A stretch of DNA of 64,000 nucleotides from an uncultured Gammaproteobacteria bacterium (GTDB taxonomy: Bacteria; Cyanobacteriota; Vampirovibrionia; 2-02-FULL-35-15), in the NCBI GenBank assembly GCA_964602915.1, contig CAZRTB010000003.1, forward strand, positions 146,809 to 210,808. The letters are read 5' to 3'. Every line of letters starts with the position of its first letter. Within the stretch, counting starts at the first letter, position 1. Shown one piece after another: positions 1-42,218 of this stretch. The notes under the pieces were generated by a model. That model saw nothing but the letters and a program-made list of their open reading frames with translations. It was not told the origin of the DNA and searched no databases. Made by a program: the position numbers and the translations under genes.

Positions 1-47
1 GATTAAAAAATTTAACTGTCTCAATATCTAGACCTTGATGTGCAATC

Positions 48-461
48 TCAAGCATTTTTTGTACTTACTTGCTCTTTTTGTTGATTTGGATCTTCTTCAT
101 CTGCAAAACCAGATTCTTCTTTTTCATCTATAATCTCAGGTCTATAAACAATATATCCTCTTCCTGCAATGGCAAATGTAATAGTACTAAGTATAAGCAT
201 TAGCCCCCCAGGCATAAAAGCCTGAGTCTCTGCAAATCTAATCAAAAAAAACATGGACAACATTAAACTGGTTGACGCAATAAAAAGATACCCTGCCTTT
301 GGCTTTTTAGAACCTAGCTGCCAAGCAACTAAAACAATTAAACAGCTAAGTGCACCTGTAATTAAGGATGGCTTACTATGTGCTTTTAAAAATCCTATTA
401 AACCGCCAACAAATAAAAGAATGGCATATGAAATACTTATATAATTACTAACTTTATCCAT
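48..461 (-). CDS. TMEM14-family small membrane protein
   Basis: YAILLFVGGLIGF..HSKPSLITG and FMPGGL motifs, about 4 hydrophobic segments, acidic tail. Track ORF runs to 482; ATG at 461 chosen as start. Confidence 0.8.
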   Translation of the reverse strand: MDKVSNYISISYAILLFVGGLIGFLKAHSKPSLITGALSCLIVLVAWQLGSKKPKAGYLFIASTSLMLSMFFLIRFAETQAFMPGGLMLILSTITFAIAGRGYIVYRPEIIDEKEESGFADEEDPNQQKEQVSTKNA

Positions 462-565
462 TACAAAAGAACAACCTCTCAAATTATTTAATACCTTAAA
501 AACATAGCATATAGAGGTAGTTTTTTATTATTTTATTTCAATAAATATATTAGTTTTTTAATCTT

Positions 566-691
566 AAAGTTCAGCTTGTCTAAATATTAAAGAACTCATC
601 AAGCAATTTATAAAAATAGGATTTGTCCGAATTATTCGGCAAATCCGTGTTCAAACATGAAGGCTTAATTTCTGAAAAGTTCAGCTTGTCT
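566..691. repeat. 16-bp perfect direct repeat AAAGTTCAGCTTGTCT (566-581 and 676-691)
   Basis: Exact match read directly; copies are 110 bp apart. Confidence 0.85.
618..647 (-). repeat. 30-bp structured hairpin element, copy 1
   Basis: Minus strand CGGATTTGCCGAATAATTCGGACAAATCCT; aligns without gaps to 817-846 and 48611-48640. Confidence 0.75.
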
Positions 692-698
692 GAACTTT
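676..698 (-). terminator. Hairpin downstream of tRNA-Thr, probable intrinsic terminator
   Basis: AAAGTTCAG-cttgt-CTGAACTTT inverted repeat about 12 nt past the tRNA 3' end; the U-tract is short. Confidence 0.5.
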
Positions 699-709
699 CA
701 AATAGAATC

Positions 710-782
710 AGCCCACCACCGGGATTGAACCGGCGACCTCGTCCTTACCAAGGACGTGCTCTACCAACTGAGCTAGATGGGC
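710..782 (-). tRNA. tRNA-Thr(GGT)
   Basis: GCCCATC...GGTGGGC acceptor stem, anticodon arm CGTCC-TTGGTAA-GGACG, T-loop GGTTCAATCC; CCA not encoded. Confidence 0.97.
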
Positions 783-816
783 ATAGTTGTAGCTTACATC
801 TTTTAATTCACATCTC

Positions 817-846
817 CAGATTTAGTGGACAAACCACACAAATCCT
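817..846 (+). repeat. 30-bp structured hairpin element, copy 2
   Basis: CAGATTTAGTGGACAAACCACACAAATCCT; same outer arms and loop pattern as copy 1, different but fully paired inner stem GTGG/CCAC. Confidence 0.7.
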
Positions 847-926
847 AATATTGAAGAATTCATTATAAATATGCAGAGTACAAAGTTAAAAAGTTAACCC
901 TGATATTTTATAACAAAAGCTAAGTA

Positions 927-2186
927 TCACAAATTATTTTCTTTGATTTTTTTAGCAATACTTATTCCAGCCAGTCTTCCAGTAGCCCAAGCAGATTGTA
1001 AGTTAAATCCACCAGTAAATCCATCGATATTTAAAACTTCACCAGCAAAATATAAACCTTCATTTATTTTTGATTGCATTGTCTTTTTATTTACTTCTTC
1101 TAACGAAACCCCTCCGGCTGTCACGAACTCATCTCCAGGTCTTCTTGAAATTAATGCAATATCTAAGCTTCCTGAAAGTAGGTGTGAAAGTTTTTTTCTT
1201 TCTTCTTTACTTACTTCAGAAGCTTTTTTATCTTTTTTTATATTTGCAAGAATTAAAACCTCTTCGGATAATCTTTTTGGTAAGTAATCGCTTATTATTT
1301 GTAAGATTTGTTTTTTACTGTTTTCCTGAAACATCTTTAAAAGTAATTCATTCCATTTATCAAAATGGAAATTGGATATTGGTAATAATGACACTTTGAA
1401 TTCACAATCATTTGTAATTTTCTGGAATGCAATATGTGAAGATAGTGAAAAAACAGCTGGACCAGATATTCCAAAATGAGTAAATAAGAATGGTCCATTT
1501 ACTCTTATAATCTTTCCATCTTTCAATTTAGCGATCAGTCCAGCATCTTCCAGGCTCAAACCTGATAAATTCTTACACCATTTTTCTTTCACCTCAAAAC
1601 TATTTAATGATGGACCAAGCTCTGTTATAGTATGCCCCAGAGACTTTGCAAAATCATATCCATCACCACTAGAACCTGTATGCTTGTAAGCATTTCCCCC
1701 ACTTGTAATCACAAGGATATTAAATTCATACTCTTGCTTATCAGAGATTAAATAGAATTTGTTGTTTTTAAACTTAACAACTTTGATAGCTTGACTTAAA
1801 TGAGTTTTTATTTTGTTTTTAAAGCATTTTTCAAAGACAGACACAATATCTTTGCCATTATCAGACTTTGGGAACACTCTCAAATCCTTTTCTACTTTTA
1901 GTGGAACTCCTTTATTTTCAAACCATTCAAAGACTTTTTCAGGTGGGAAATTATTTATAGCTGGAATTAAGAATTTCTCTCCTCTTGTATACTTTGACAA
2001 CAATATACTTTTATCCGTTATTCCAGTAGTTACGTTACAACGTCCACCACCACTAATAGCAACTTTTTTACCTAAAACATTGTTTTTTTCAAACAGATGG
2101 ATTTCAGCAGTAATATTTTCTTCAAGAAGTGTAACGGCTGTCATAAGCCCTGCCGCTCCCCCACCAACTATTGCAATTTTTTTCAT
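927..2186 (-). CDS. NAD(P)/FAD-dependent oxidoreductase, HI0933/BaiN family
   Basis: IVGGGAAG, KKVAISGGGRCNVT, LFTHFGISGPAV, VTAGGV, GLYFAGE..DGFTGGFNLQSAWATG. Confidence 0.93.
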   Translation of the reverse strand: MKKIAIVGGGAAGLMTAVTLLEENITAEIHLFEKNNVLGKKVAISGGGRCNVTTGITDKSILLSKYTRGEKFLIPAINNFPPEKVFEWFENKGVPLKVEKDLRVFPKSDNGKDIVSVFEKCFKNKIKTHLSQAIKVVKFKNNKFYLISDKQEYEFNILVITSGGNAYKHTGSSGDGYDFAKSLGHTITELGPSLNSFEVKEKWCKNLSGLSLEDAGLIAKLKDGKIIRVNGPFLFTHFGISGPAVFSLSSHIAFQKITNDCEFKVSLLPISNFHFDKWNELLLKMFQENSKKQILQIISDYLPKRLSEEVLILANIKKDKKASEVSKEERKKLSHLLSGSLDIALISRRPGDEFVTAGGVSLEEVNKKTMQSKINEGLYFAGEVLNIDGFTGGFNLQSAWATGRLAGISIAKKIKENNL

Positions 2187-2239
2187 TTTCTCAAACCCTA
2201 GAGTATTCTATATTAAACTAAATATATTGGAGGTGCTTT

Positions 2240-2542
2240 ATGAGTGGTTTTATGAATTTCATTAGAGAACAAGGTGTAGTTGGATTAGCTGTAGGTTTTA
2301 TTTTAGGAGGTGCAATATCAAAACTAGTTTCTTCCTTAGTAACAGATATTATTAATCCTGTTATAAGTATCGGACTAGGCACTGTTGGAAATTTAAAAGA
2401 AGCATTTATTGAAATAGGACCTGCAAAGATTATGTGGGGTAGCTTAGCCAGTACATTTATAGACTTCATTGTCATCGCAATAGTTGTTTATTTTGGAGTA
2501 AATGCTTTAGGTCTAAATAAGTTAGATAAGAAGAAAGGATAA
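2240..2542 (+). CDS. mscL: Short large-conductance mechanosensitive channel
   Basis: F..FI....VVGLAVGFILGGA..LV.SLV.DIINP and TM2 FIDFIVIAIVVYF; GGAGG ribosome-binding site. Confidence 0.88.
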   Translation: MSGFMNFIREQGVVGLAVGFILGGAISKLVSSLVTDIINPVISIGLGTVGNLKEAFIEIGPAKIMWGSLASTFIDFIVIAIVVYFGVNALGLNKLDKKKG

Positions 2543-2627
2543 CTTATTAAAAGAATATTAAATTTTAGCTTTTAGTCAAAATAACACTAGTTTTTAGCAC
2601 TTAATTAAATAAAACTGATTTTTCTAG

Positions 2628-2636
2628 TGATATACT
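2628..2636 (+). promoter_or_regulatory. Extended -10 promoter (TGaTATACT) for the DEAD-box helicase
   Basis: TGn + TATACT; implies a leader of about 170 nt. Confidence 0.4.
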
Positions 2637-2812
2637 AAAAGTCTGAAAATCAATTTTAATGGATTCTCCATTTGCCCTAAATAAAGGTGCAAAAGTGCAA
2701 GATTTAAATCTACGATAAAGCTTTAATAATCATATAAGAGTTTCTGTTTTAATAATTTTTAAGAAAAATATAATGCAATAGCATTTTTGCTTAAGCAGAA
2801 AAGGAAATATTT

Positions 2813-4033
2813 ATGTACGATAAATCGCGCAAATCTGGGAATTCTTCTAGTAATGGTAAATGGAGAAAAAAAGGCTCTTTTGGTTTTAAAAGAAGATCCT
2901 CAAGTAATAATAATAGAAGAGGAAATAGTCAGAACATTGAGGTCTCAAAATTTATAAAAAAAGCTGTAGTTAAAACTAATACAGAAGAATTTGTCCCTGT
3001 TAATAAATTCTCAGATTTCAATATCTGTGAAAAGCTTAAAGCAAATATTATAAGTAAGAAATTCACAACCCCTACTCCTATTCAGGATAGAGCAATACCA
3101 GCAATTTTAGAAGGGAAAGACTTTCTAGGAATAGCAAATACAGGAACAGGTAAAACAGCATCATTCCTTATACCTCTAATTGAAAAGGCTGTTAAAAATA
3201 ACAATGAGAAGGTTTTAATAATGGCTCCGACAAGAGAGCTAGCTCTTCAAATAGATGAAGAATTTAGAGCATTTTCAAAATTCTTCCCACTTAGTTCTGT
3301 GGCTTGTATAGGTGGAGCAAATATTAGAAGTCAAATCTTCTCGATAAAGAAAAGAAGACCAAGTTTTATCATTGGTACACCTGGAAGACTTAAAGATCTC
3401 ATGGAAAGAAGAGTAATAAATCTTTCAAAATTTAACAATGTGGTCCTAGACGAAGTAGACAGAATGTTAGATATGGGATTCATTAATGATATTAAGGAAA
3501 TAATTTCATTATTACCAGAACAAAGGCAGTCATTATTTTTCTCTGCAACCATTTCTAGAGAAGTAGATAACTTAATCAAAGGGTTTTTAAAAGATCCTGT
3601 TAAAGTGTCTGTAAAATCTGGAGAAACAGCTGAAAACATTGATCAAGATGTAGTAAGAGTTCAAGATAAAAGTAAAAAAATTGATAGTCTTCATGACTTA
3701 TTAATTCAGGATGATTTTAAAAAAGTTCTGGTTTTTGGAAGAACAAAAAGAGGAGTTGAAGACCTATCTACAAATCTTCGTCAAAGAGGATTTAAAGTAG
3801 GATCTATTCATGGTGATAAAACTCAAGCAAAAAGAGAAAAAGTTTTACAACTTTTCAAAGCAAATCAGATTCAAACACTTATAGCGACAGATGTTGCCGC
3901 TAGAGGTTTAGACATAGCTGATATAACCCATGTTATTAACTATGATCTCCCAGCTACATATGAAGACTACATTCATAGAATAGGCAGAACTGGCAGAGCT
4001 AACAAAACCGGAAAAGCTTTGACTTTTGTTTAA
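2813..4033 (+). CDS. DEAD-box RNA helicase
   Basis: TPIQ, TGTGKT, PTRELA, TPGRL, DEVD, SAT, TDVAARGLD, HRIGRTGRA; basic N-terminal extension. Confidence 0.96.
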   Translation: MYDKSRKSGNSSSNGKWRKKGSFGFKRRSSSNNNRRGNSQNIEVSKFIKKAVVKTNTEEFVPVNKFSDFNICEKLKANIISKKFTTPTPIQDRAIPAILEGKDFLGIANTGTGKTASFLIPLIEKAVKNNNEKVLIMAPTRELALQIDEEFRAFSKFFPLSSVACIGGANIRSQIFSIKKRRPSFIIGTPGRLKDLMERRVINLSKFNNVVLDEVDRMLDMGFINDIKEIISLLPEQRQSLFFSATISREVDNLIKGFLKDPVKVSVKSGETAENIDQDVVRVQDKSKKIDSLHDLLIQDDFKKVLVFGRTKRGVEDLSTNLRQRGFKVGSIHGDKTQAKREKVLQLFKANQIQTLIATDVAARGLDIADITHVINYDLPATYEDYIHRIGRTGRANKTGKALTFV

Positions 4034-4126
4034 ATAAAACTAATTCCTTAAAGATTAAAAAGAATTTATCTGGTAAGTATGTATATCACTCTGTAAAAGT
4101 ATTTTTTTCTTTTATAGAATTATCAT

Positions 4127-5299
4127 ATGATTAGAATAAACTTTTCAGAATTAAAATTCCCAGACCCAAGAGCAAGAGAATGCATTCTTAGAGGTGGAAG
4201 CAAAGGTGGCTTCTATGACTTCTTTTCTGATAATTGGAAAGGAACAAAATTTGAAAAACATTTACCCGAAGGAAGGCATTTTTTCTGCGATACTACTGTG
4301 CAAAAAGATCCCAGAGAATATATAGGCATAGTTGAAAAGTCAGATAGACCAAAATTTCTAAGATCTTGCATTCTTCCTAATGAAGAATTTAATTATGCCG
4401 GAGATTTTGCAGGAGCAGTAGACCTACTGCCTTCAGAAGCCATAGAAGATCCTGATTCATTAAGAGAAAAAATTAATCTACTAAAACTATTAGTTCAAAG
4501 TAAAAGTATAAAAGATTATATTAAATGGGATGGCGGTGATCCTGAAAATATAAGGCTAGCATTTGAAATTGAAGATTTTTACACTGGTACAAAATCAAGA
4601 AGAGTAGGTTCAATAGTAGAACATCCACACGATAAAGGTACATATGTTGCAGAAGTGTGTGAAAGTTCAGTTCCCAAAGGAGACATAGGTAGTATAAATA
4701 CTGTTATTGCTGATGAACATGGAGATTCTAAAGAAACTGGTGTTTATCCTGCAGGAATTACACTACAAAACTTTGAGGAAATTGTAGATTGCTATAAAGA
4801 TATAAAAGATTCTGGATTTATTCCAGAAGGTTACACTTTTCAAATGGAATTTGTAATTTATGGCTATAAAAAGTTTAAAGTAGTTCAAGCAAGACTTTTC
4901 AGGAAAGAAGAGGAAAGAGCCAATTTTGATTTTAGTGAAACTAATTATAAAACAAAAACACCTACTTATTCTTCATTTGGAATTACACCAAAAGATGGGG
5001 TAGAAGTAGATATAGATCATATAAATAATTTTTATGGGGCAGGAAGCAGTTCAGCCTTTTACAACTTCTTTAGAAATCATGATTCACTACCTTTAGTTAT
5101 AACCCCTAAAGAAATATCATTTTTTGCCTCAAGCACAGTTTCAGGAGCATTTTTAAATCACGGACCTTATAGATTTTTAATTAAATCTGATTATTTCATG
5201 GGTTTAAATGAAAACAGTGAGTTATTTGTAGATAGTACATTACCAGGCAAAGCAAGATTTATTTCAAATGGAATTAATAGCTGGTTAGTAGCAGAGTGA
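4127..5299 (+). CDS. Hypothetical protein, divergent PEP-synthase-type ATP-grasp (PPDK_N-like) domain
   Basis: GGSKGG, FLRSC......YAGDF and QMEF......VVQAR echo the GGKG / VRSS...FAG / DIEW...LQARP motifs in the right order. Confidence 0.5.
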   Translation: MIRINFSELKFPDPRARECILRGGSKGGFYDFFSDNWKGTKFEKHLPEGRHFFCDTTVQKDPREYIGIVEKSDRPKFLRSCILPNEEFNYAGDFAGAVDLLPSEAIEDPDSLREKINLLKLLVQSKSIKDYIKWDGGDPENIRLAFEIEDFYTGTKSRRVGSIVEHPHDKGTYVAEVCESSVPKGDIGSINTVIADEHGDSKETGVYPAGITLQNFEEIVDCYKDIKDSGFIPEGYTFQMEFVIYGYKKFKVVQARLFRKEEERANFDFSETNYKTKTPTYSSFGITPKDGVEVDIDHINNFYGAGSSSAFYNFFRNHDSLPLVITPKEISFFASSTVSGAFLNHGPYRFLIKSDYFMGLNENSELFVDSTLPGKARFISNGINSWLVAE

Positions 5300-5305
5300 T
5301 AGATC

Positions 5306-5773
5306 TTAATTAGCACCTAAAATACTGATCAGATCAATTTCATGTCCTTCTACTGTACAAAAGGATTCAAGGATTTTCATTATCTGATCATCACTAAGAT
5401 TATTAATTATAGAAAGTACTTTAGAAATATCTTCTTCACTTTCTATAAGAAAACACTCTCTAATTGCGCTCTCAACAGCATCACCAAAGGTTTCACAAAG
5501 TGAAGGTTCTTCCAAGTACCTAGGTTCAGCATATGTACCTTCATGAATTATATATTCTCTTATAGCTTGAAAGAAGTCTGGAGATCTAGCCTCTAATAAT
5601 GAACGTCCATATACCTCAGCAGAAATAATTTCCTTTTTAAAATCTTCCCCAAAAGTTTCAAGATGCTCAAGAATGCGTGAGTTTAAACGTACATCACAAA
5701 GTTTTGCATTACCTGCTTTTAGTTTCTGGAATAAGCCATTTGCTCTTGGTGTAGTAATTTTTATTCTATTCAT
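5306..5773 (-). CDS. Hypothetical protein
   Basis: 155-aa acidic ORF filling the gap; no recognised motif. Confidence 0.7.
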   Translation of the reverse strand: MNRIKITTPRANGLFQKLKAGNAKLCDVRLNSRILEHLETFGEDFKKEIISAEVYGRSLLEARSPDFFQAIREYIIHEGTYAEPRYLEEPSLCETFGDAVESAIRECFLIESEEDISKVLSIINNLSDDQIMKILESFCTVEGHEIDLISILGAN

Positions 5774-5818
5774 ATCTGATCAAGCTTATCTTTGCACTTA
5801 TTAAAAATAAATGAAACT

Positions 5819-5908
5819 CGGAGGAGACAGGATTCGAACCTGCGTGACGACTTTCGCCATCTAACTGATTTCGAGTCAGCCCCGTTATGACCACTTCGGT
5901 ACTCCTCC
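5819..5908 (-). tRNA. tRNA-Ser(CGA)
   Basis: GGAGGAG acceptor, anticodon arm GCTGA-CTCGAAA-TCAGT, long variable arm, GGTTCGAATCC. Confidence 0.97.
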
Positions 5909-5930
5909 ACTCCACAATTTCACAATATGA

Positions 5931-6773
5931 TTATAGATTACAAATCCTTTCTTTTACAAAATTTGCAAAAAATTGATTTTTATTACCTATTTTATTCTCT
6001 AAAAACTCTTTTTCCAGCTTTAATGACATCTCTACAAATTTTTTCAATGAAAGCTCTGATTCTTTCTTTTTAAAACAAAGAGTCCCTATCTTTATATCGT
6101 TTAAGATCTGTTCTTTCGTAGAAACAAAAACTCCTGAAGAAAAATCAGAATTACTTAAAGAGTTTTTATTGTAGTAGCAAACATGAAGAATCTCAGAGAG
6201 ATGATAGATATTATCAACATAATCATAAGCTGACACAACAAAAATCAGATCTTCTAAAACTAAATAATTCTCACTAAACAGAAGAGGAATTTTATTTCTA
6301 TCATAAGTAATTGTCCCGTTTAAAAAGTTCACGAATGGATAAGTTTCAGCAGTTAAAAGCCTATCCTTATCAAATACTCCTATAGTATTTATTATCTTTT
6401 CATTTTCTGCCCTATATTCAATAGCACTACTTACAAAACCATAGTCAATTACTTTTGGAATAACTTTTTCCAGCTTAGAAGGTAAAAGAAAATCATCGCT
6501 ATCTAATAGTGATATTATTTCCCCACTTGACTCTTTAATTCCTAGATTTCTTGCATTTGACACACCACTACCAGATTTTAACGTGCTAGTATATACGATT
6601 CTTTTATCATTGATGTTATTGTTTTGAATAAAACTTTTATAATCAAACAAATCATCAGAAACAATTACTAACTCCCAATTCGTATATGTCTGATTTAAAA
6701 CACTATTTATTGATTTAAGAATAAAATCTTTTGAGTTAAAGCAGGGCATTATTATAGATACTTTTGGACTCAT
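5931..6773 (-). CDS. Family 2 glycosyltransferase
   Basis: VSIIMPCFN, SVLNQTY.NWELVIV, ARNLGI, LDSDD. Confidence 0.92.
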   Translation of the reverse strand: MSPKVSIIMPCFNSKDFILKSINSVLNQTYTNWELVIVSDDLFDYKSFIQNNNINDKRIVYTSTLKSGSGVSNARNLGIKESSGEIISLLDSDDFLLPSKLEKVIPKVIDYGFVSSAIEYRAENEKIINTIGVFDKDRLLTAETYPFVNFLNGTITYDRNKIPLLFSENYLVLEDLIFVVSAYDYVDNIYHLSEILHVCYYNKNSLSNSDFSSGVFVSTKEQILNDIKIGTLCFKKKESELSLKKFVEMSLKLEKEFLENKIGNKNQFFANFVKERICNL

Positions 6774-6791
6774 TATTATAATTATATATCA

Positions 6792-7325
6792 ATGGATTTA
6801 TTAACTGTTAAACTAGATTACATGGAAAAGTTAATTGAAAATATTAGAAACATTAAGCTTATTGCTATTGATATAGATGGAGTTATGACTGATGGGTCTC
6901 TTTTCTACTCAAAGGATGGAGAAGCGATAAAAAGATTCAATGTTAAAGATGGTCAAGGAATAAAATTAGCTCAGCTTTATGGATTAGAACTAGCCATTAT
7001 AAGTGGTAGAGAATGTGAAATTGTAAGAAATCGAGCTATAGAGTTAGGCTTTAAGCACTTATATCAACACTGTCACGATAAAGCAAAAAAAATTAAAGAA
7101 ATTATAGCTGAACTAAAAATCTCTCTAGAAGAAACAGCATTTATCGGAGATGATATTTTAGATGTCCCAGTTTTAGAGATTGTTGGATTATCAGCATGTC
7201 CTAAAGATGCACATCCAAGTGCAAAATCTAAATCTAAAATTATCACTGAGAGAAAAGGTGGCGAAGGTTGCGTAAGAGAATTAATAGATCTTATTTTAAA
7301 AGAACAAGGAAAAATACAAATTTAG
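6792..7325 (+). CDS. kdsC: 3-deoxy-D-manno-octulosonate 8-phosphate phosphatase (HAD IIIA)
   Basis: DIDGVMTDG, FNVKDG.GI, IGDDILD, GGEGCVRE; real start may be the second Met. Confidence 0.92.
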   Translation: MDLLTVKLDYMEKLIENIRNIKLIAIDIDGVMTDGSLFYSKDGEAIKRFNVKDGQGIKLAQLYGLELAIISGRECEIVRNRAIELGFKHLYQHCHDKAKKIKEIIAELKISLEETAFIGDDILDVPVLEIVGLSACPKDAHPSAKSKSKIITERKGGEGCVRELIDLILKEQGKIQI

Positions 7326-8452
7326 TCTCTTGTATAAACTCTAGGTAATCTGATTTTAAGTCTGCACACAAGCTCATAAGTTATGGTGTTTAAGATATTT
7401 GCCCAACCACTTATGCTTAGTTCTTTTTCTCCATCCTTACCAATTAATGTAATCACATCTCCAACTTGTGGGTTATCAAGATCAGAAATATCAAACATCA
7501 TTTGATCCATAGTTATATTTCCTACCTGCTTAACTTCTACTCCTTTATATAAACCAAAAATCTTATTCGAAAGATTCCTATCTACACCATCAGCATAACC
7601 AATAGGGACAGTAGCAATAACTGAATCTTTTTTTGCTTTCCAGGTCCTGCTATAGCTAACTGATTCATCTTTAGTAACAGTATGAATTTCAGTAATTCTT
7701 CCTTTGACAGAGATAATTGGTTCCAGGAAATTAAACTCCTGTCCATATAATGCTATTCCTATTCTAGCCAGATCATACCTCATATCCTCAAAGTTAATAC
7801 CAGCATGACTACTAGCCAAATGTTTCAATACTTTTAAATCTTTATGTGAAGAAATAGCCACTTCAAATCTATCTTTTTGAATTTTTGAGAACTCGTAATC
7901 TGCCGCAGTAGACAAATGAGAAAAAATTCCTTCAAGATTTAAGTTTTTAGAATTTATAATTTCATCAATAACAGATTTTGCTTCTTTATAATTCACTCCA
8001 AGTCTATTCATCCCTGTATCTATCTTTAGCTGGACTGGAATCTTTTTATTTTTCTTTTCCCCTAATTCATTCAAAGATACAATTTGATCCTTCGAGTAAA
8101 TAGTAATTGTTAAATTGTTTTTATCACAGACATCATATGCCCAGAAAGGAGTAGCTCCTAAAATAATAATAGGTACTTTTATATTTGCACCTCTCAATGC
8201 AACTCCTTCATCAACAGTAGCAACACCAAACGAATGAACTCCCAAACTCTGTAAAATAGGCGCAATAGCACAAGCTCCATGTCCATAGGCATCAGCTTTC
8301 ACTACTGCCATAATATTTGTTTTCAAAAGGGTTTTTAATTTTATAAAGTTTCTTTCAAGAGCAGAGAGATTAATTTCTACCCAGGCATCTCTCTGTGTAG
8401 CTGATTGAGTTTGTGATCTATGTGTAACTGTCATATGAATAGTATATAGCAC
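7322..8452 (-). CDS. alr: Alanine racemase
   Basis: AVVKADAYGHG, DTGMNRLG, IGYADG, ITMDQ, TITYE. Confidence 0.97.
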   Translation of the reverse strand: MLYTIHMTVTHRSQTQSATQRDAWVEINLSALERNFIKLKTLLKTNIMAVVKADAYGHGACAIAPILQSLGVHSFGVATVDEGVALRGANIKVPIIILGATPFWAYDVCDKNNLTITIYSKDQIVSLNELGEKKNKKIPVQLKIDTGMNRLGVNYKEAKSVIDEIINSKNLNLEGIFSHLSTAADYEFSKIQKDRFEVAISSHKDLKVLKHLASSHAGINFEDMRYDLARIGIALYGQEFNFLEPIISVKGRITEIHTVTKDESVSYSRTWKAKKDSVIATVPIGYADGVDRNLSNKIFGLYKGVEVKQVGNITMDQMMFDISDLDNPQVGDVITLIGKDGEKELSISGWANILNTITYELVCRLKIRLPRVYTRD

Positions 8453-8526
8453 TCTTAAATATCCATAATCACAATTTCTCTATTAAATGTCTCTACAGCA
8501 AATTACGATATAATAAACCTGTTATT

Positions 8527-10107
8527 TTGGAGAAAGAAATGAAAAAATTAGCATTAATTAGTGTTTATAAAAAAGATGGAATTGTTGAATTTGCAAGTAA
8601 GTTAAATAAAGATTTTGGATATGAAATCTTATCTACAGGTGGCACAGCAGAACTATTTAGAAAAAATGATATTCCTGTTACTGAAGTAAGTGAAATTACA
8701 AAATTTCCAGAAATGTTAGACGGAAGAGTAAAAACTTTACACCCAGTAGTTCATGGTGGTCTTTTAGCCAGAAGAGATAAAGAAGACCACATGCAAACTC
8801 TAGAAAAAAATAATATTAAACCTATAGATCTTGTTATTATAAATCTTTACCCTTTCGAAGAAGTCATATCAAAACCAAATGTTTCTCTTGAAGAAGCTAT
8901 TGAAAATATTGATATTGGCGGACCATCCATGATTAGAAGTGCTTCTAAAAACTACTCTGCTGTTACTGTGGTTTGCGATCCATCAGACTATGAAACAGTT
9001 TTAACTGAGTTAAAAGAAAACAATGGAAAGACTACACTGAAACTAAGAGAAAAGCTTGCATGTAAAGCATTTCAAAAAACCAGTTCATATGACAGTAGAA
9101 TTAATTCTTATTTATCAAAAGTCTCCTCTTCTCCATCTACTAATGGAAAATCAAGCAAATTCCCCGAGAAGTTAGAATTAAAATTAACACTTAAACAAAA
9201 ACTTCGCTACGGTGAGAATCCTCATCAAATGGCAAGTTTATATTTAGAAGAAGGCTCTAAAAATGGACTTGCTAATGCAGAAGTTTTACAGGGTAAAGAG
9301 TTATCATTCAATAATTATTTAGATCTTGAATCAGCATGGAATATAGCTTCAGAGTTTGGAATAGAAACCCCTGCCTCAGTAATTATCAAACATAATAATC
9401 CATGTGGAACAGCTATAGCACCAGATCTACTTCATGCATATATAGAAGCTTTTAACTGTGATTCAGTAAGTGCCTTTGGTGGAGTTGTGGGATTTAATGG
9501 AAAAGTTGAAGCTGAACTAGCAGATGAACTAACTAAGATTTTTTTAGAAGCTATTATTGCTCCTGACTACTCGAAAGAAGCTATTGAAATCTTTAAGAAA
9601 AAACAAAATCTTAGAGTGTTAAAAATTACACCTGAAGAAAATCTCTTAAAAAGATACGACATTAAAAGCATTGGTGAAGGGATTTTAATCCAGGACTTTA
9701 ATGCTTTTACATTAGACTTAAATAATTTAAAAGTTGTAACAAAAAGAAAACCTACTGATCAGGAAATGATCGATCTTATTTTTGCATGGAAAATATGCAA
9801 GCATGTAAAATCAAATGCTATTGTTGTAGCTAAAGAAGGAAAAACACTTGGAGTAGGTGCAGGTCAGATGAATAGAGTAGGCTCAGTAGAAATTGCTTTG
9901 AATCAAGCTAACTTCAATTCAAAAGATGCTGTTTTAGCTTCTGATGCTTTTTTCCCATTTAAGGATAATATTGAAGTCGCTGGTTCTGCAAAAATTTCAG
10001 CCATTATTCAACCTGGTGGCAGTATTAAAGATCAGGAAGTAATTGAAGCCTGCGATAAAAATAATATTGCTATGATATTTACAGGGATGAGGCATTTCAG
10101 ACATTAG
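8527..10107 (+). CDS. purH: Bifunctional AICAR transformylase/IMP cyclohydrolase
   Basis: [40 protein letters not shown]; ATG at 8539 is an alternative start. Confidence 0.98.
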
Positions 10108-10111
10108 GAAT

Positions 10112-10978
10112 ATGGCACTAACATTTCAAGAAATTTATTTAACATTAAATCAGTTCTGGTCTGAACAAGGTTGTGTAATTATGCAACCTTATGATATTGA
10201 AAAAGGGGCCAGTACAATGAATCCCGCTACTTTTTTATATGTCCTAGGAGAAAAGCCATGGAACATGGCATGTATAGAACCCTGCAGAAGACCTACAGAT
10301 GGAAGATATGGTGATAATCCAAACAGGCTTCAAAACTATTTTCAGTACCAGGTCATCATGAAACCTTCACCAGATGATATTCAGGATAGATATCTGGCTA
10401 GTCTTGAAAAAATTGGTGTTAAAACAAAAGAACATGATATTAGATTTGTAGAAGATGACTGGGAATCCCCTACACTCGGTGCATGGGGAGTAGGATGGGA
10501 AGTCTGGTTAAATGGAATGGAAATTACTCAGTTCACATATTTCCAGCAAGCAGGAGGGATTGATTTAAAACCTACTGCAGTAGAAATTACATATGGGTTA
10601 GAGAGATTAGCTATGTACATTCAGGACGTAGACAATGTTTTTGATCTTAATTGGACAAACGATGTAAAATACAAAGATATTTATCACAGGAATGAAGTAG
10701 AGCAAAGCAAATATAATTTTGAAATAGCAAACATCAATGATTTATTAAAAAGATTTGATATGTACTACAATGAAGCAAAATCATGCCTTGAGAATAAAAT
10801 AGTTTTACCTGCTTATGACTATATCTTAAAATGCTCTCATTGTTTTAATCTGTTAGATGCCAGAGGAGCAGTTAGCAGAGATGAAAGAATGGCATATATT
10901 CTAAGAATTCGAAAATTAGCAGAACATACAGCTAGGTTATACCTGGGTATTGAAGAAAAAGTTAGTACTAAAAAATAG
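10112..10978 (+). CDS. glyQ: Glycine-tRNA ligase alpha subunit
   Basis: [39 protein letters not shown]. Confidence 0.98.
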
Positions 10979-10989
10979 TTTTTATACTT

Positions 10990-11292
10990 TTACGCTACTG
11001 CAAGAAGTCTAAGAGTGTAGACCTGACCATCAACCATCACTTCTCTAAATTCATCTTTTTTCTTTTGACTTGGGTCTGATATTAAATCAAGGAATTGTTC
11101 ATTTCTTTTTTCTGATTTTACAAGATTTCTTCTATTAGTTCTTGAAAGTCCTGTTTTCTTTTCTTCTACTTGTTGGTCAGCTTTTGTAAATTGGTTAAAC
11201 GCTTCTTCGCCATTTCCGCTCTGTGGTGGCTGAAGAGAGTTCTGGCCCCCAGTTCCAAAGTTTCTATTAATTGATAAATCTAATATAAACAT
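10990..11292 (-). CDS. Hypothetical small protein
   Basis: 100-aa hydrophilic ORF with an upstream GCCGATAA box; contains EKRNEQFLDL. Confidence 0.7.
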   Translation of the reverse strand: MFILDLSINRNFGTGGQNSLQPPQSGNGEEAFNQFTKADQQVEEKKTGLSRTNRRNLVKSEKRNEQFLDLISDPSQKKKDEFREVMVDGQVYTLRLLAVA

Positions 11293-11312
11293 TTTCTACC
11301 TATCTACTTTAT

Positions 11313-11320
11313 TTATCGGC
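11313..11320 (-). promoter_or_regulatory. Sigma28 (FliA/SigD)-type -10 box GCCGATAA
   Basis: Perfect 8-mer 20 nt upstream of the ATG at 11292; -35 match is poor. Confidence 0.5.
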
Positions 11321-11390
11321 GACCTAAGACATAGCAATATAATGCCCACATAGGGTTAACTCCAGGTAAAGAAGGAATTTATTTATAACA

Positions 11391-12203
11391 ATGAGTTTTA
11401 ACATTAAGGAAAGATTAAAACTGATACAATGTTTCATGATGATAAGCAGATTAAAATCTAAGATTGCCAGGCTCTATAGCAGTTTAGTCTATTTTACTCT
11501 TTGTTCTATTTCATATATTGTTTTTAGATTTCTTTGTATTTTAAAAGTAGAAGGCAGAGAAAATATTCCTAGAAGAGGACGATTTATTTTAGCTTCTAAT
11601 CATCAGAATTTTTTTGATGGGAATTTAATAGCAAGCATCATTTTTCCACAAAGAAGAATGACATTTTTAGTTTCAAAAAGACCTTTAAAGTGGTGGCTCT
11701 GGAAGTATCTTGCAAAGACTATAGGTTTGATTTTAATCGGAAGCAGTATTGAAGAATATCAAAGAGCTTTAAAAAGGCTAAATAACCATTTAACTCATGG
11801 TGGCGTCGTTGGGATTTTTCCCGAAGGAACAGTTACTGGCTTCAGTACACCAATAAAATTTAAAGGTGGCGTAGCAAAATTATCTTTAGATTCAAGAAGT
11901 AACGTAATACCCATTTATTTAAGTGGCACTTTTAATCTTAGAAAATTAAGCTACTTCTTATCACGCCCTACTATCAGCGTAAAGATAGGAAAACCTCTAG
12001 ATTTATATAATTATGCACCTATTTGTGGGAATAATTTAGACAAAATGGCGGCTATTTTAAGAGAAAAAATTTTGGAACTAGCAGAACCAAGACAAATTGA
12101 AGTTACTGAAGATTCTAAATCATTAGTTGATATTTCAAAGAGACAAATAGAATCTGATTTGGTTTCAAAAAATAATTCTCCTCTAGAAACCGCAATAAAA
12201 TGA
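11391..12203 (+). CDS. PlsC-like 1-acyl-glycerol-3-phosphate acyltransferase
   Basis: NHQNFFD (HX4D) and IFPEGT. Confidence 0.9.
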   Translation: MSFNIKERLKLIQCFMMISRLKSKIARLYSSLVYFTLCSISYIVFRFLCILKVEGRENIPRRGRFILASNHQNFFDGNLIASIIFPQRRMTFLVSKRPLKWWLWKYLAKTIGLILIGSSIEEYQRALKRLNNHLTHGGVVGIFPEGTVTGFSTPIKFKGGVAKLSLDSRSNVIPIYLSGTFNLRKLSYFLSRPTISVKIGKPLDLYNYAPICGNNLDKMAAILREKILELAEPRQIEVTEDSKSLVDISKRQIESDLVSKNNSPLETAIK

Positions 12204-12207
12204 AAAA

Positions 12208-12936
12208 ATGATTCTATCTTATTTTGACAATAATAAAAACGGTTATCCAGTTGTATTTATCCACGGTACAGCAAGTGCAAATGATGTTTGGGAAAAACAA
12301 TATAAAGTATTAAGTGATTTAAACTATAGACTAATAGGAATTGATTTGAGAGGTCATGGTAAGTCAAAAAATCCTGGTGGTGTTTGTACTGTTGATAGCC
12401 ATATCCTAGATTTAAAAGAAACCTTTGATTACATTGGACTAGATAAACCTCTAATTTTTATAGGGCATTCCTTTGGTGCAGTTCTTTCTTTTAAGTATGC
12501 AGAAACATTCCCAGAAGAAGTTTCAAAACTTTTATTGGTTTCCCTTCCGCCAAAAATCCCAATGATTTTACATCTGTACTATAAATGGTTACTTGGCAAA
12601 CCAATAGATATTTTTAAAAAGCAAATGGACATAATTTTAAAGCTTCCAGTAAAGAAAAGATATAAGTTAGCTGTATCAACTGACATGGGCATTGTCAGAC
12701 AAATATGGAGAGATTCTGTAAGCTGGGATTTCCTATCAAAGACACCAAACATTTCATGTCCTGTGCATTTCTCTGTTGGTAAGTATGATTATATTGCTCT
12801 AAAAGGTTCTATAGAAAGATTACATAAAAAAATCCCTAACTCTAGTTATAAAGTTTTTGACTTTGCTAGCCACACCTGTATGGAAGACCAACCAAAAGCT
12901 TTTAATGAATGGGTTTTAACAAGCCTACATAAATAG
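12208..12936 (+). CDS. Alpha/beta hydrolase
   Basis: FIHG, DLRGHGKS, GHSFG, C-terminal catalytic His (ASH). Confidence 0.9.
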   Translation: MILSYFDNNKNGYPVVFIHGTASANDVWEKQYKVLSDLNYRLIGIDLRGHGKSKNPGGVCTVDSHILDLKETFDYIGLDKPLIFIGHSFGAVLSFKYAETFPEEVSKLLLVSLPPKIPMILHLYYKWLLGKPIDIFKKQMDIILKLPVKKRYKLAVSTDMGIVRQIWRDSVSWDFLSKTPNISCPVHFSVGKYDYIALKGSIERLHKKIPNSSYKVFDFASHTCMEDQPKAFNEWVLTSLHK

Positions 12937-12943
12937 ATCCGAA

Positions 12944-14086
12944 CTATCTAAGAAAAATCTCTTTAGCAATAATAAGTCTTTGGATTTGTGATGTGCCTTC
13001 ATAGATTTGGAATATTTTTGCATCACGCATAAGTTTGGCTACTGGATATTCATTAGAATAACCATAACCGCCATGTATTTGAACAGCATCAGTAGTTACC
13101 TTCATAGCAGTATCTGCAGCAAATCTTTTTGCAAAAGCGGCAAGTTTAGTGTTTCTAAGACCATTATCCATAGCCCATGCTGACTGCCATGATAGTAATC
13201 TAGCCGCTTCAATTTCACAAGCCATATCTGAAATCATAAAGTTAATCCCTTGATGCATTGCAATTGGCACACCAAAAGAAGTTCTAGTTTTTGAATACTC
13301 TATAGCATATTCCATTCCTGCTCTTGCTACACCTACTGCACCAGCGGCAATTCCAGGTCTAGTATGATCAAAAGCTTTCATAGCAATTTTAAAACCTTCA
13401 CCTTCCTGACCAAGAAGGTTTGCTTTAGGGACTTTCACTTCTTCAAAAATTACCGAATGGGTAGCAGAAGCTCTTTGACCCATCATGTCTTCTTTCTTAC
13501 CAACTTTTACACCAGGTGAGTCTGCATCTACAATAAATGCACTCATCCCTTTATGTGCTTTTGACATGTCTGTTTTTGCAAGTACATAAAACCACTTTGC
13601 TTGACTTGCACCAGTAATCCATTGCTTAGCACCATTAATAATGTATTCATCTCCCACAAGCTTTGCTGTAGTTTGAACTCCTGCAACATCAGAACCAGCC
13701 TGTGGTTCTGTAACTGCATATGAAGCAAATGTTAATTCTTTTGTAATCATGCCTAAATATTTTTTCTTTTGCTCATCATTTCCAGCAACAATTACAGGCG
13801 CAGTAGCTAAGTGATTTGCACCAAGAGCAGTACTAATTCCTGAACATCCATAAGCAAGCTCTTCTGCAATAATTACCTCGTCTAAAACACTTAATTCAGA
13901 ACCATTACAACTGGCTGGAATATTTAAATTCATAAGACCAATTTCAAAGGCTTTTTTAGCAATTCCTAGTGGAAATTTCCCTTCTCTATCATGCTCTTCA
14001 GCATGTGGCCTAATTTCTTTTACTGCAAACTCCCTTGCTAATCTTTGAAGTTCTTTCTGCTCATCTGTAAGACTAAAGCTAATCAT
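12944..14086 (-). CDS. Acyl-CoA dehydrogenase
   Basis: [34 protein letters not shown]. Confidence 0.96.
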
Positions 14087-14235
14087 GTTTTAATAAATCC
14101 TTTATACATTTTTAATAAAGCCACTCATGTATTATATTTTCAGATAGGCAATTGAGCAATAATAATAAAATAAGGCTTAAAATGTCTCTATATAGGTATT
14201 TTGTGGTATTATATTAGTGATAGGCCCAAAATATA

Positions 14236-14808
14236 ATGTCAAAACAAGAAATAGTAAAATACGGCGACCCAGTTTTAAGAAAAGTAACTAGCAGAGTAAT
14301 AAAGTTTGATAAATCCCTCAGAAAGCTAGTAGAGGACATGTTTGAAACCATGTACGCTTCTGAAGGCATTGGTCTTGCTGCACCTCAGATAGGTGTCAGT
14401 AAAAGAGTATTGGTTGTTGATGTTGATTATGCATCTAAAAGATATGTAGATGAAAAAACAAATAAAGAAGAACCTTCTTATAGCCCTATGGTATTAATAA
14501 ACCCAGTAATTATTCAAAAAGAGGGTGAGTTAATATCAAAAGAGGGTTGTTTAAGCTTCCCTGGAGTTTATTTTGAAGTAATCAGACATAAAAAAATAGT
14601 AGTTAGATATCAAGACCTTTTAGGTAAAGAAAGAAGATTAATTGCAGAAGAAGATTTGCTTTGTAGATGCATTCAGCATGAAATAGATCACCTTGATGGA
14701 AAACTTTTTGTTGATAAGCCTGCAAATGGTGAAGAAGTAAAAAAAATATTGTCTGAAAATGGTCTTGGTGATGTCGAAGATCCACAATCACCGATTTTAA
14801 TTGCATAA
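14236..14808 (+). CDS. def: Peptide deformylase
   Basis: GIGLAAPQ, EGCLS, QHEIDHLDG. Confidence 0.97.
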   Translation: MSKQEIVKYGDPVLRKVTSRVIKFDKSLRKLVEDMFETMYASEGIGLAAPQIGVSKRVLVVDVDYASKRYVDEKTNKEEPSYSPMVLINPVIIQKEGELISKEGCLSFPGVYFEVIRHKKIVVRYQDLLGKERRLIAEEDLLCRCIQHEIDHLDGKLFVDKPANGEEVKKILSENGLGDVEDPQSPILIA

Positions 14809-15013
14809 TTTTTTGTTCCAATTGTTAATTAATGTTTTTTACATTTATACACAAAGTATATGTTTATTTTTTTTACTTGAGATTTAGAAAAAATTCCTAG
14901 GATGTTTATCTAATGTAAAAGTTTTATAAGAGAAAAATGAAAATATAATTAATTTCTTTAATTTATCAAGTTTTTCATCGTACGATTTATAACAAGCAAG
15001 AGAAGAGAAAATC

Positions 15014-15223
15014 ATGGCAGTTCAAATACCAATTAAGACAAAAGAAACAAAATCAGTTGATGTTGTAGAGATTACTACTGCTGTACCAAAAGATCAAGCA
15101 AACACAATTAAACAAATGATTATGAGATATATCCTTGACCATAACAAAGAAGAAGTTGCTTTCAAACTTTTAGGAATGACACATACAAAACTTAGAGATG
15201 ATGTCAAACTCTGGGTTAAATAA
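15014..15223 (+). CDS. Hypothetical small protein
   Basis: 69-aa ORF with purine-rich ribosome-binding region, alone in the gap. Confidence 0.65.
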   Translation: MAVQIPIKTKETKSVDVVEITTAVPKDQANTIKQMIMRYILDHNKEEVAFKLLGMTHTKLRDDVKLWVK

Positions 15224-15315
15224 TTTTAAAAGAGAAGTTTTTTATTTTCCTGTGTTACATAATTAACTTATAAAAAACTTAAATCACTTGTGTATAATAT
15301 TTGAAGCCAAAATGA

Positions 15316-15387
15316 GGATCGGTAGCTCAACGGTGGAGCAGAGGACTCATAATCCTTTGGTTATAGGTTCGAATCCTATCCGATCCA
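15316..15387 (+). tRNA. tRNA with CAT anticodon (Ile2 or elongator Met, not initiator)
   Basis: GGATCGG/CCGATCC acceptor with paired 1:72; arm GAGGA-CTCATAA-TCCTT lacks the initiator three G-C pairs. Confidence 0.93.
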
Positions 15388-15390
15388 ATT

Positions 15391-17316
15391 TTATGCCGTT
15401 TTAGCAACTTCCTTATCAAAATCTTTCACTCTTTCACTACTGTTTGGTATAGGTAAAACAAACTCAAATATACTACCTTCACCGAATTTGCTTCTTACAC
15501 TAACTCTACCATCATGTTGTTCAACAGATTTTTTAACAATAGTAAGACCAAGACCAGTACCTTTTACTGTATGCACTTTATTTTCAACTCTATAAAATCT
15601 TTCAAAAACATATGGAAGACTTTCTTCTGGTATTCCAATACCATTATCTATAATTTGGAATATTACTTCGTCTTTGGTTTGCTTAACTACAAGTTTTACC
15701 ATTCCATTTCCAGGCGTGTATTTAATAGCATTTGAAATTAAATTAACCAGTATTCTTTCAAGATTTTCCTGATTTAGATTTAATAATGGAAGATTTTCGT
15801 CTACATCTGCAATTAGTTTTATTGATTTTTTACTAGCTAAAACAATAGTAGACTTTAAAGCGTACTCTATAGATGGATAGACATCCTGGATAGACAACGG
15901 CAACTTCAATGATGGAGATTCTAATCTGGAAAGCTCTAAAACATCATTCACCAGACTACTTAATCTATCTGTTTCTTCATTCACAATAGATAAAAACTCT
16001 TTTCTTGTTCTATCATCTATCTGCTGTTCATGAGAACAGAGCGTATCGACATAACACTTAATGCTAGTTATTGGAGTTCTTAATTCATGACTAACATTAC
16101 TAATAAATTCCTGCTTCATAAGCTCAATTTCTGCTTCTTTTGTTCTGTCATGAATAATAATCAATGCACCTAACTTATCTTCATTTTGATTTATCGGAGT
16201 AATAAAAAATCTTAGATTTCTTCCATTTTTTACTGTTTCAAAAGATTTTTGCTCTAGAGTAATATCATTTAGCTTAATCTCATTTAAATATCCAACAACC
16301 TGATCATTTACAGTAGAGTTTAAAATGCTTTTAATACTTGTACTTATCAACTCATCAGAAGACATATCCAAAAGCTTACATGCCGCTATATTTATTATTT
16401 GGATAACTCCATCTTTATCAATAACTATCACTCCATCAGTTATAGACATAACAACAGATTCAAATTTATTTCTTTCAGAACTTAAAGATGCAATATTTGA
16501 CTCTTCATACTGGGCTAATCTCTTTGACATCCTATTAAATGCTTTCACAAGCTGAGAAAGCTCTTTTCCTAGAAATCCTCTAAGAGGTAACTGAAATCCA
16601 AATCTACCTTCTGTAATAGCTTTAGCACTTTTCTCAAGCTTTCTTAAAGGTCTGGTAATAATTAAAGAATTTACAATAGCTCCAATAACTGAAAGAACCC
16701 ATACCAAAGCAAAAATCTCAAGTAAAAATATTATTAATTCCTTTTTTGAACCCACTATAGTAAATCCAGTATCTGGTAATCCTATCCATGCCCATCCGAA
16801 TAAATTAGAGTTGTATTGAATTGGTTCAGCAAAAGTTAATATTTTTCCACTTTTTGAAAATAGAATTTTTATATATGGCACATGTTTTGGAGGAAGAAGT
16901 ACATTTTTTCCTTTAGTAATTTCATATATATGCGAGAATTCACTTTTAGCAAGCACCCTCCCAGCATTATCTGTAAAAATAACGAATGAGACATCAGGAT
17001 TCTTTTTCATAAAATCCCTAATTAATTCTTCTAGTTTTCTTGTTCTGGATTCACTACTTGAGAACCCCTGTACCAAAACCTGCCCTCCCAGATAAGAAAT
17101 CGTCTGAGATGTTTTTAAATTATGATTTAGTCTTAAAACCTGATTATCAATATTGGATTGAATATTTTGAATTATTATAAATGCACATATTGTAATAAAA
17201 ATTGAGATTCCAAAAACAATAGAAACAATAAGTTTTACTTGAAAACTTAAACTGTTAAATGTTTCTCTTAAATAAGAATATAATTTCCTAATATGAGCAC
17301 TGTTATTGGTTTCCAT
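15391..17316 (-). CDS. nblS: Membrane sensor histidine kinase, HAMP-PAS-HisKA-HATPase, Hik33/NblS-like
   Basis: 2 TM segments, FISNVSHELRTP, ETDRL..LVNDVL.LSRLES, FYRVENKVHTVKGTGLGL. Kinase call is firm; orthology to NblS is from recall. Confidence 0.75.
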   Translation of the reverse strand: METNNSAHIRKLYSYLRETFNSLSFQVKLIVSIVFGISIFITICAFIIIQNIQSNIDNQVLRLNHNLKTSQTISYLGGQVLVQGFSSSESRTRKLEELIRDFMKKNPDVSFVIFTDNAGRVLAKSEFSHIYEITKGKNVLLPPKHVPYIKILFSKSGKILTFAEPIQYNSNLFGWAWIGLPDTGFTIVGSKKELIIFLLEIFALVWVLSVIGAIVNSLIITRPLRKLEKSAKAITEGRFGFQLPLRGFLGKELSQLVKAFNRMSKRLAQYEESNIASLSSERNKFESVVMSITDGVIVIDKDGVIQIINIAACKLLDMSSDELISTSIKSILNSTVNDQVVGYLNEIKLNDITLEQKSFETVKNGRNLRFFITPINQNEDKLGALIIIHDRTKEAEIELMKQEFISNVSHELRTPITSIKCYVDTLCSHEQQIDDRTRKEFLSIVNEETDRLSSLVNDVLELSRLESPSLKLPLSIQDVYPSIEYALKSTIVLASKKSIKLIADVDENLPLLNLNQENLERILVNLISNAIKYTPGNGMVKLVVKQTKDEVIFQIIDNGIGIPEESLPYVFERFYRVENKVHTVKGTGLGLTIVKKSVEQHDGRVSVRSKFGEGSIFEFVLPIPNSSERVKDFDKEVAKTA

Positions 17317-17331
17317 GCCTAAAATTATACT

Positions 17332-19356: not shown

Positions 19357-19405
19357 AATTGATAATTAGAAAATGAGACTTATTACAGTGTGAATTCTAA
19401 CAGAG

Positions 19406-19430
19406 AAGGAAGTCTGTAATACACTTCCTT
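19406..19430. terminator. Intergenic hairpin AAGGAAGT-N9-ACTTCCTT
   Basis: 8-bp perfect stem just downstream of the TPR gene; weak U-tract. Confidence 0.4.
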
Positions 19431-19453
19431 TATAAAGATTTCATTCTTTATCT

Positions 19454-42146: not shown

Positions 42147-42218
42147 GCGGAAGTAGTTCAGTGGTAGAATGTCTCCTTGCCAAGGAGAAGGTCGCGAGTT
42201 CGAACCTCGTCTTCCGCT
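42147..42218 (+). tRNA. tRNA-Gly(GCC)
   Basis: GCGGAAG/CTTCCGC acceptor; arm TCTCC-TTGCCAA-GGAGA. Confidence 0.97.

Follow-up and report, generated by a model that had tools for sequence, protein, structure and literature searches.

What kind of element is the short hairpin that recurs in this bacterial DNA, and what does the covariation in its stem mean? A preliminary description of the 64,000-nucleotide stretch analyzed here (the window) had listed three copies of a 30-base hairpin and read its pairing as selection on a folded shape. The three 30-mers lie at the positions and on the strands reported, and the unit is real, but it is not the whole element: it is hairpin B, the 3′ half of a two-hairpin repeat that we call the A-B repeat. 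Hairpin A had been missed, as had the polarity of the repeat toward tRNA ends and start codons and a fourth copy in the window, at 42214-42309 (+). The A-B repeat is real and apparently previously undescribed; no description of it was found in a literature search that covered titles and the openings of abstracts, mostly outside subscription papers. It has the look of a bacterial mini mobile element of a new kind. Interspersed bacterial palindromes usually carry a known tag and have a flanking enzyme, whereas the A-B repeat has neither and yet has been kept family-wide. The copies in the window and their parts are given below, with tRNA calls from ARAGORN and Rfam and the gene product at 47171-48568 from NCBIfam.

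710-782, minus strand: tRNA-Thr(GGT) (ARAGORN, Rfam), with copies on both sides, their A ends facing the tRNA
604-709, minus strand: complete A-B copy directly after tRNA-Thr (covariance-model alignment)
698-709, minus strand: T-rich leader between the tRNA-Thr 3′ end and hairpin A (sequence; model alignment)
677-697, minus strand: hairpin A of the complete copy, a perfect 8-bp stem with loop ACAAG
648-676, minus strand: linker of the complete copy, 29 nt
618-647, minus strand: hairpin B of the complete copy (first reported 30-mer)
602-617, minus strand: tail of the complete copy (column frequencies; filled/empty comparison)
567-581, minus strand: exact 15-nt repeat of 677-691 (hairpin A loop and 3′ arm), 110 nt on (sequence)
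759-860, plus strand: copy at the 5′ side of tRNA-Thr, hairpin A lost (33.9 bits, E 4e-5)
790-816, plus strand: decayed linker of the tRNA-Thr 5′-side copy
817-846, plus strand: hairpin B of that copy (second reported 30-mer), with two broken pairs
42214-42309, plus strand: decayed full copy directly after tRNA-Gly(GCC) 42147-42218 (41.2 bits, E 9e-7)
48560-48654, plus strand: copy after the stop of an FAD-linked oxidase gene, hairpin A collapsed (covariance model)
48567-48584, plus strand: collapsed hairpin A, which shares bases with the stop codon of the FAD-linked oxidase gene 47171-48568 (sequence; ORF; NCBIfam)
48585-48610, plus strand: linker of the copy after the oxidase gene, 26 nt (sequence)
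48611-48657, plus strand: hairpin B (third reported 30-mer, 48611-48640) and tail

DNA folding z-scores of the three reported copies are -5.8, -4.3, and -5.5, and the 15-nt repeat at 567-581 is the stump of an A-B-A duplication. At 5760-5817 (-), a T-rich leader and a possible hairpin A stump follow tRNA-Ser(CGA), below the model threshold.

Flank alignment delimits an A-B repeat of ~100-110 bp, composed of a T-rich leader of ~10-14 nt, hairpin A, a linker, hairpin B, and a short tail. Hairpin A has an 8-bp stem and a 5-nt loop, which is ACAAG in 208/216 copies, and the linker is 26 or 27 nt in 204/216. Hairpin B consists of 7 bp, a bulged A (A22), 4 bp, and a 5-nt loop, followed by a weakly conserved tail of ~16 nt, the boundary of which is approximate (column frequencies; comparison of filled and empty sites). 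The two hairpins differ from each other and carry their loops on the same strand, forming a direct head-to-tail pair, and column frequencies in the 216 copies reveal no U-tract 3′ of either. The stems of the repeat vary freely while its loops and spacing are fixed. In one subfamily a second small hairpin lies inside the hairpin A loop (source genome C1:613532, C2:69872-70099, C2:291216-291527, and C1:564867). Elsewhere the repeat lies in frame within the first codons of longer ORFs (L094/L227 and L078/L267), a placement inside ORFs comparable to that of the Rickettsia palindromic elements.

The spacing of the arms stands out in the genome as a whole: GATTT-N16-AAATC occurs 71 times, vs. 14-41 times for each of the 25 other spacings tried between 5 and 30, and a weight matrix from 27 seeds finds 84 sites in the genome and 1 in one block-shuffled genome. 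In 40 copies from the source genome, 96.4% of paired cells are complementary, vs. 76.2% in shuffles that ignore relatedness and at most 52.5% in slid pairing controls, and 18 of the 19 stem pairs have changed on both sides. The changes extend to all 11 pairs of hairpin B, so the outer arms, previously taken to be conserved, are not. Nor is there a 1x2 internal loop: what had been drawn as one is a covarying base pair at positions 8/23, broken in two of the three reported copies, next to the bulged A. Among 201 copies from many genomes this pair is complementary in 97%, vs. 53% expected, and the 15 most strongly covarying column pairs are stem pairs only; the 201 copies were picked by a pattern that demands good pairing, which inflates their pairing rate and leaves the covarying columns unaffected. 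In the same set there was no covariation between A and B, and an outer helix of linker with tail had neither excess pairing nor covariation. A conserved folded shape is thus supported. Palindromes can be re-perfected when one arm serves as template for the other, and because of this covariation alone is no proof of selection. Across the stems, 3832 Watson-Crick pairs stand against 33 A-C and 17 G-T mismatches, which are as rare as in DNA palindromes.

The source genome comprises 2.39 Mb in 24 contigs with 32% G+C. Its owner is a Melainabacterium: the Hsp33 encoded in the window shares 67-71% identity with five matches named Candidatus Melainabacteria and 43-45% with named oxygenic Cyanobacteria. 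Our family sample consists of 12 genomes (79-98% complete), the source genome and 11 relatives from eight other genera. The genome scan with a covariance model that the preliminary description had proposed returned many further copies, 92 in the source genome and 12-86 in each of the 11 relatives, all of which carry the repeat. With the same model, 29 genomes from nine further families of this class gave no match. Among 150 genomes sampled from the phylum, with strict filters and 26 candidates scored per genome, the one family member and one weak match (E 0.008) came up. A metagenome scan added at least 120 A-B loci, and viral contigs held no match to the A-B pattern. At gathering thresholds Rfam 15 recognized only 4 tRNAs in the window, and for 10 of the 40 fetched copies its best score was 19.3 bits (E 1), with no family match. 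For comparisons between genomes we used 180 distinct full copies in 204 loci of the relatives, 176 of them with enough flank; these loci are the best-scoring or pattern-matched ones rather than all copies, so the set favors intact repeats. The repeat is mostly extragenic, with 6 of 79 copies overlapping an ORF call (five of these ORFs being 76-106 aa), and lies between convergent genes in 19/76 cases, vs. 7.4 expected. Orientation is mixed, no cassette arrays occur, and the neighbors are unrelated housekeeping genes that differ from genome to genome.

Several observations bear on whether the repeat moves. Occupancy of its sites differs between genomes, and filled sites gain about one element net. 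When 64 copies in four relatives were followed to the source genome, most of the orthologous neighborhoods had no copy nearby. In 33 cross-genus pairs of a filled and an empty site, with flanks too diverged to define junctions, the median net gain was 113 nt (quartiles 93-128); these remained from 134 pairs, 58 of them filled on both sides, after restriction to differences of at least 40 nt and removal of repeated comparisons of one site and of pairs with a second element in between. One clear exception aside, the two residents of each of 20 shared sites resemble each other no more than randomly chosen copies do (linker identity 0.54 vs. 0.52), and 360 pairs contain 95 compensatory and 11 single differences. 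This divergence fits repeated insertion or replacement and also long divergence in place, since the compared genomes belong to different genera and saturation could account for it. The doublet is the intact form of the repeat: hairpin B has on average 0.61 broken pairs beside an intact hairpin A (n = 54) and 1.47 without one (n = 17; p 0.008). A copy resembles others of its own genome hardly more than those of other genomes (nearest neighbor 0.67-0.86 in the source genome), so no recent burst is seen. Window positions 1-739 are unchanged in a strain from another study, and no empty allele appeared in four DNA sequencing runs over window positions 1-20000; a single contig of one run, possibly a paralogue, jumps back 49 nt, from 697 to 649.

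Target duplications are rare and vary in length, and duplication of a gene start on the B side is at most occasional (4/97 scored high, vs. ~0.8 expected). In the source genome A-B-A units form tandem arrays with a period of 86-200 nt, and tRNA fragments are repeated in tandem beside A ends. A few half copies begin at a loop. Taken as a whole, the A-B repeat is very probably an interspersed mobile repeat. Among the tandem repeats, those at C1:155850-156400 and C3:10290-10530 of the source genome have periods of ~79 and 111 nt, respectively; each unit takes in the 5′ end of the tRNA-Pro or tRNA-Ser next to it, and the repeats stop at the A side of a copy.

The most unusual property of the repeat is its polarity: on the A side it stops sharply at tRNA ends and start codons. 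Among the 176 copies of the relatives, 65 have an outward-pointing start codon no more than 18 nt from the A end, nearly always at 6-14 nt, 19 have a tRNA end within this distance, and 5 a stop; the B end meets a boundary of any kind in 14/176, one of them a start. Measured on the source genome, the background rate of such an ATG is 4.1% for free positions in general and 6.1% for A-tracts, and the A end meets start codons and tRNA ends far more often than the frequency of A/T tracts predicts. In the source genome itself, 100 full or partial copies divide into 15 after a tRNA 3′ end, 2 facing a tRNA 5′ end, 18 after a stop, 9 facing a start, and 56 with none of these within 21 nt. The 15 occupy 15 of 38 tRNA 3′ ends; counting both ends, 17/76 tRNA ends are occupied, vs. 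27/4170 ORF ends defined by a simple ORF caller. The 3′ ends of tmRNA and terminator-like hairpins, the latter recognized by eye, also adjoin A ends. Because both strands of tRNA genes are used, the common factor would most simply lie at the level of DNA.

Our data lean, at somewhat better than even chances, toward a model in which the A-B repeat is a nonautonomous hairpin doublet moved in trans as single-stranded DNA. In this model the doublet would be recognized in its folded, single-stranded form by a small stand-alone nuclease that acts in trans and binds the constant loops; the nuclease would nick the T-tract 5′ of hairpin A, and repair would then place a copy of the doublet at a new A/T-rich boundary, at times with duplication of flanking DNA to give A-B-A arrays and repeated tRNA fragments. 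The stems would drift freely, as nothing but their pairing is read and either arm can restore the other by templating. The main rival, though unlikely, is a domesticated RNA element, in which B′, A′, and the A-tract on the opposite strand make up a structured 5′ leader, placed directly upstream of a start codon or tRNA, that protects or processes the transcript, the copies being held by selection and spreading rarely. It explains the 65/176 copies of the relatives that precede an ATG in the matching orientation and the slight lean of the mismatches to G-U on the leader strand (33 vs. 17, p 0.03), and it is in keeping with the compensatory differences at shared sites and with conservation of the family across 9 genera. 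Yet in the source genome tRNA 3′ ends (15/100) and stops (18/100), where the transcript reads the other strand, exceed starts (9), the neighboring genes are unrelated and differ between genomes, neither a U-tract nor an Rfam match was found, and frames across the repeat are no more open than with a shuffled linker. Were the RNA leader nevertheless correct, the repeat would be a family-wide signal for translation or processing in an uncultured sister group of Cyanobacteria. A coded leader peptide was rejected as a separate candidate, open frames being equal to the shuffled-linker control; ATG-started frames cross 31/214 copies on the minus strand and 13/214 on the plus strand. A sigma-70 promoter within the repeat was rejected because its TTGACA-like and TATA-like words, noted by eye, are ~26 nt apart.

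The remaining readings differ from trans mobilization by a small nuclease in the enzyme that they invoke. Ends of IS200/IS605 elements have two subterminal hairpins, a bulged base, and an A/T-rich site at one end, and their right ends carry a short conserved motif ~8-10 nt past the second hairpin. The A-B repeat resembles them in its two hairpins, bulge, A/T-rich end, and motif past B, and it might be a REPIN or an IS200/IS605-derived miniature moved by a Y1 HUH transposase, with A and B as left- and right-end hairpins and with B preceded by a GAY guide and followed after ~8 nt by a CAAG cleavage motif. A GATC-like foot does precede B, CAAG peaks at tail position 8 (32/214), Y1 genes occur by Pfam in 6/12 family genomes and at two loci of the source genome, and doublets outlast singlets as they do for REPINs (Bertels and Rainey 2011, PMC3116915). 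However, none of 9 Y1 loci in the relatives carries the repeat (best E 0.24; genomes incomplete), no GTAG-type tag is among the eight commonest feet of either stem, and REPINs are inverted pairs of one REP whereas A-B is a direct pair of different hairpins. Moreover, no covariation of foot and tail of B was seen among the top pairs, TnpB is absent from the source genome, the only one searched for it, and a parent element carrying TnpA or TnpB between the two hairpins did not turn up. The empty sites are too diverged to supply junctions from which precise, duplication-free ends could be read. This origin is quite improbable, and of the earlier comparison with REP and HUH-transposase hairpins only the general REP-type resemblance survives. 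Group IIC introns insert behind hairpins, and retroposition, in which a reverse transcriptase copies a structured RNA while jumping behind hairpins or onto RNA ends such as those of tRNAs or the starts of leaderless mRNAs, would suit an A end that abuts tRNA and tmRNA 3′ ends, terminators, and gene starts; with no RVT_1 match in any of the 12 family genomes, it is very improbable. Integron attC sites keep structure while sequence varies and have an unpaired base in the stem, as the repeat does, and in some places copies enclose one or two small genes, for instance what is likely a toxin-antitoxin pair at tRNA-Met. The analogy with attC, drawn in the preliminary description, is nevertheless effectively refuted, and sites read by a tyrosine recombinase can be given almost no weight, because the R boxes (RYYYAAC and GTTRRRY) are present at both ends in 0/221 copies; in addition, the hairpins are two and separate rather than one long one, orientation is mixed, there are no arrays and no linked integrase, and none of the 6 tyrosine-recombinase matches has a copy within ~1.5 kb. 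The islet after tRNA-Met (source genome C2:291847-293803) holds two genes like an AbiEi/AbiEii pair, judged by eye, and has a repeated 3′ fragment of the tRNA and two related A-B copies at its borders. Equally remote is a role in antitermination, as dual-hairpin sites of the ANTAR response regulator whose gene lies at 27148-27744 in the window: the repeat does have two tandem hairpins, but its stems of 8 and 11 bp, its 5-nt loops, and the lack of a following U-tract differ from the 3-bp stems, hexaloops with A1 and G4, and downstream terminator of ANTAR targets (PMC3369931).

If the A-B repeat is moved in trans by a nuclease, where is the nuclease encoded? No enzyme could be tied to it in searches for Y1, TnpB, reverse transcriptase, tyrosine recombinase, DUF559, IS110, and GIY-YIG proteins. 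The linked tyrosine recombinase or Y1 nuclease that the preliminary description had proposed looking for was sought at recombinase and Y1 loci, none of which carries the repeat. The two RAYT-like/Y1 loci of the source genome, found by tblastn and missed by Pfam, have no copy in their 260-nt flanks by eye, and two IS200-type TnpA loci in relatives are without A or B hairpins. One clear IS110 match in the 12 genomes has no copy nearby, and DUF559 occurs only inside proteins of 640-1550 aa. Clustering of 643 ORFs from 144 A-B loci revealed no recurring enzyme, 20 paired or partial A-B loci have no recognizable transposase between their copies, and across the 204 loci the GIY-YIG and Y1 profiles each matched one.

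Small GIY-YIG genes are common in the family, and a tRNA-associated, Ssn-like protein of this kind, the one lead and an indirect one, is a candidate mover at rather less than even chances. No nuclease gene bracketed by the A-B repeat was found; the 19 small GIY-YIG loci taken from relatives include two with a copy close by, each beyond a tRNA-Ser gene or fragment. At loci L273 and L276, a small GIY-YIG gene lies directly after tRNA-Pro and is preceded by a sister hairpin module, which at L276 also follows the gene. The module consists of an A/T leader, a hairpin with loop ACAGG or GCAGG, a 21-24-nt spacer, and a second hairpin whose loop is the reverse complement of ATAAA, so that its loops fall in the ACARG/ATAAA set of the A-B repeat; it is an inverted pair with loops on opposite strands and mismatched stems, and a related single hairpin follows a tRNA-Pro fragment in the source genome. 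The L276 nuclease clade is present in 2/12 family genomes, vs. 12/12 for the A-B repeat, and viral contigs held no relative of this nuclease. More generally, small GIY-YIG genes with hairpin modules of their own lie after or inside tRNA genes for Pro, Ser, and Gly (L273:1321-1800, L276:1311-2650, L287:1343-1860, L288:1353-1700, and L291:1430-1594); at L287 a duplicated tRNA 3′ end follows the gene, and at L276 the module is present three times.

The closest described system is that of SsnA, a small GIY-YIG protein that cuts single-stranded DNA just upstream of its hairpin repeat, termed NTS, and requires the sequence of the stem, not of the loop (Chenal 2025, PMC11893778). As in that Ssn/SRM system, the A-B repeat shares its genome with small single-domain GIY-YIG genes, and its boundary is sharp just 5′ of a hairpin, where SsnA cuts. 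A CAAG-type loop is common to the A-B repeat and to CGTC-type repeats beside a GIY-YIG gene of the source genome. The differences are that in the A-B repeat the loop is fixed and the stem free, the reverse of what SsnA reads, and that no gene is flanked by it; the published degenerate SRM pattern matches 0/216 A-B copies and 6 other places in the source genome. REP, BIME, and REPIN sequences (PMC3116915; Di Nocera 2013, PMC3733652) are likewise short extragenic palindromes in tens to hundreds per genome, with doublets better kept than singlets, an excess between convergent genes, and tandem clusters. They differ from the A-B repeat, which joins two different hairpins head to tail at a fixed 26-27 nt, has variable stems and fixed loops, is pinned by one end to tRNA ends and start codons, recurs as the same family across nine genera, and flanks no RAYT. 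Of the eight 5-nt feet found most often at each stem, counted on both strands in 216 copies, none is a GTAG- or CGTC-type tag, and the comparison with the CGTC families of PMC3733652 covers this foot tag. The A-B repeat works like REP/REPIN and SRM repeats and is a member of neither. If a small GIY-YIG protein moves it, the Ssn single-strand nucleases would gain a loop-reading branch, and the spread of RAYT-less REP-like repeats would become testable with short oligonucleotides.

A more speculative extension, which we regard as doubtful, is that a boundary-seeking enzyme reads both the doublet and a feature of gene starts and tRNA ends, inserting within about ten bases of it, this shared feature being either DNA that is transiently single-stranded where transcripts end or the fold of the tRNA on one or the other DNA strand. 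If so, the leaders of hundreds of unrelated genes would have been replaced, family-wide, by one structured leader, and the underlying reaction would be a programmable-looking single-strand insertion by a loop-reading, stem-blind nuclease of a kind uncharacterized so far.

Other observations were made along the way. Small GIY-YIG genes with inverted CGTC-type repeats were found at C8:50841, C1:35890, and C7:135588 of the source genome and at L275, L279, L280, L281, L292, L293, and L294, and these bracketed loci fit the published Ssn/SRM system (PMC11893778), here in Melainabacteria. A palindrome, TGTAAC-N5-GTTACA, stands upstream of RAYT-like and GIY-YIG genes (L051-L056; source genome C7:79650-80696 and C7:135400). 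We take it to be possibly a shared repressor site, LexA-like being a guess. Within the window, an open frame of more than 2850 aa at 55444-63999 (+), with many cysteine-rich 35-aa repeats followed by ~92-aa repeats, likely encodes a giant surface protein. Finally, three runs of one other study skip 1295 nt at 4034-5330, leaving 28 other letters in their place; the skip removes the ORF at 4127-5299 (390 aa, no family match), which is thus a strain-variable gene.
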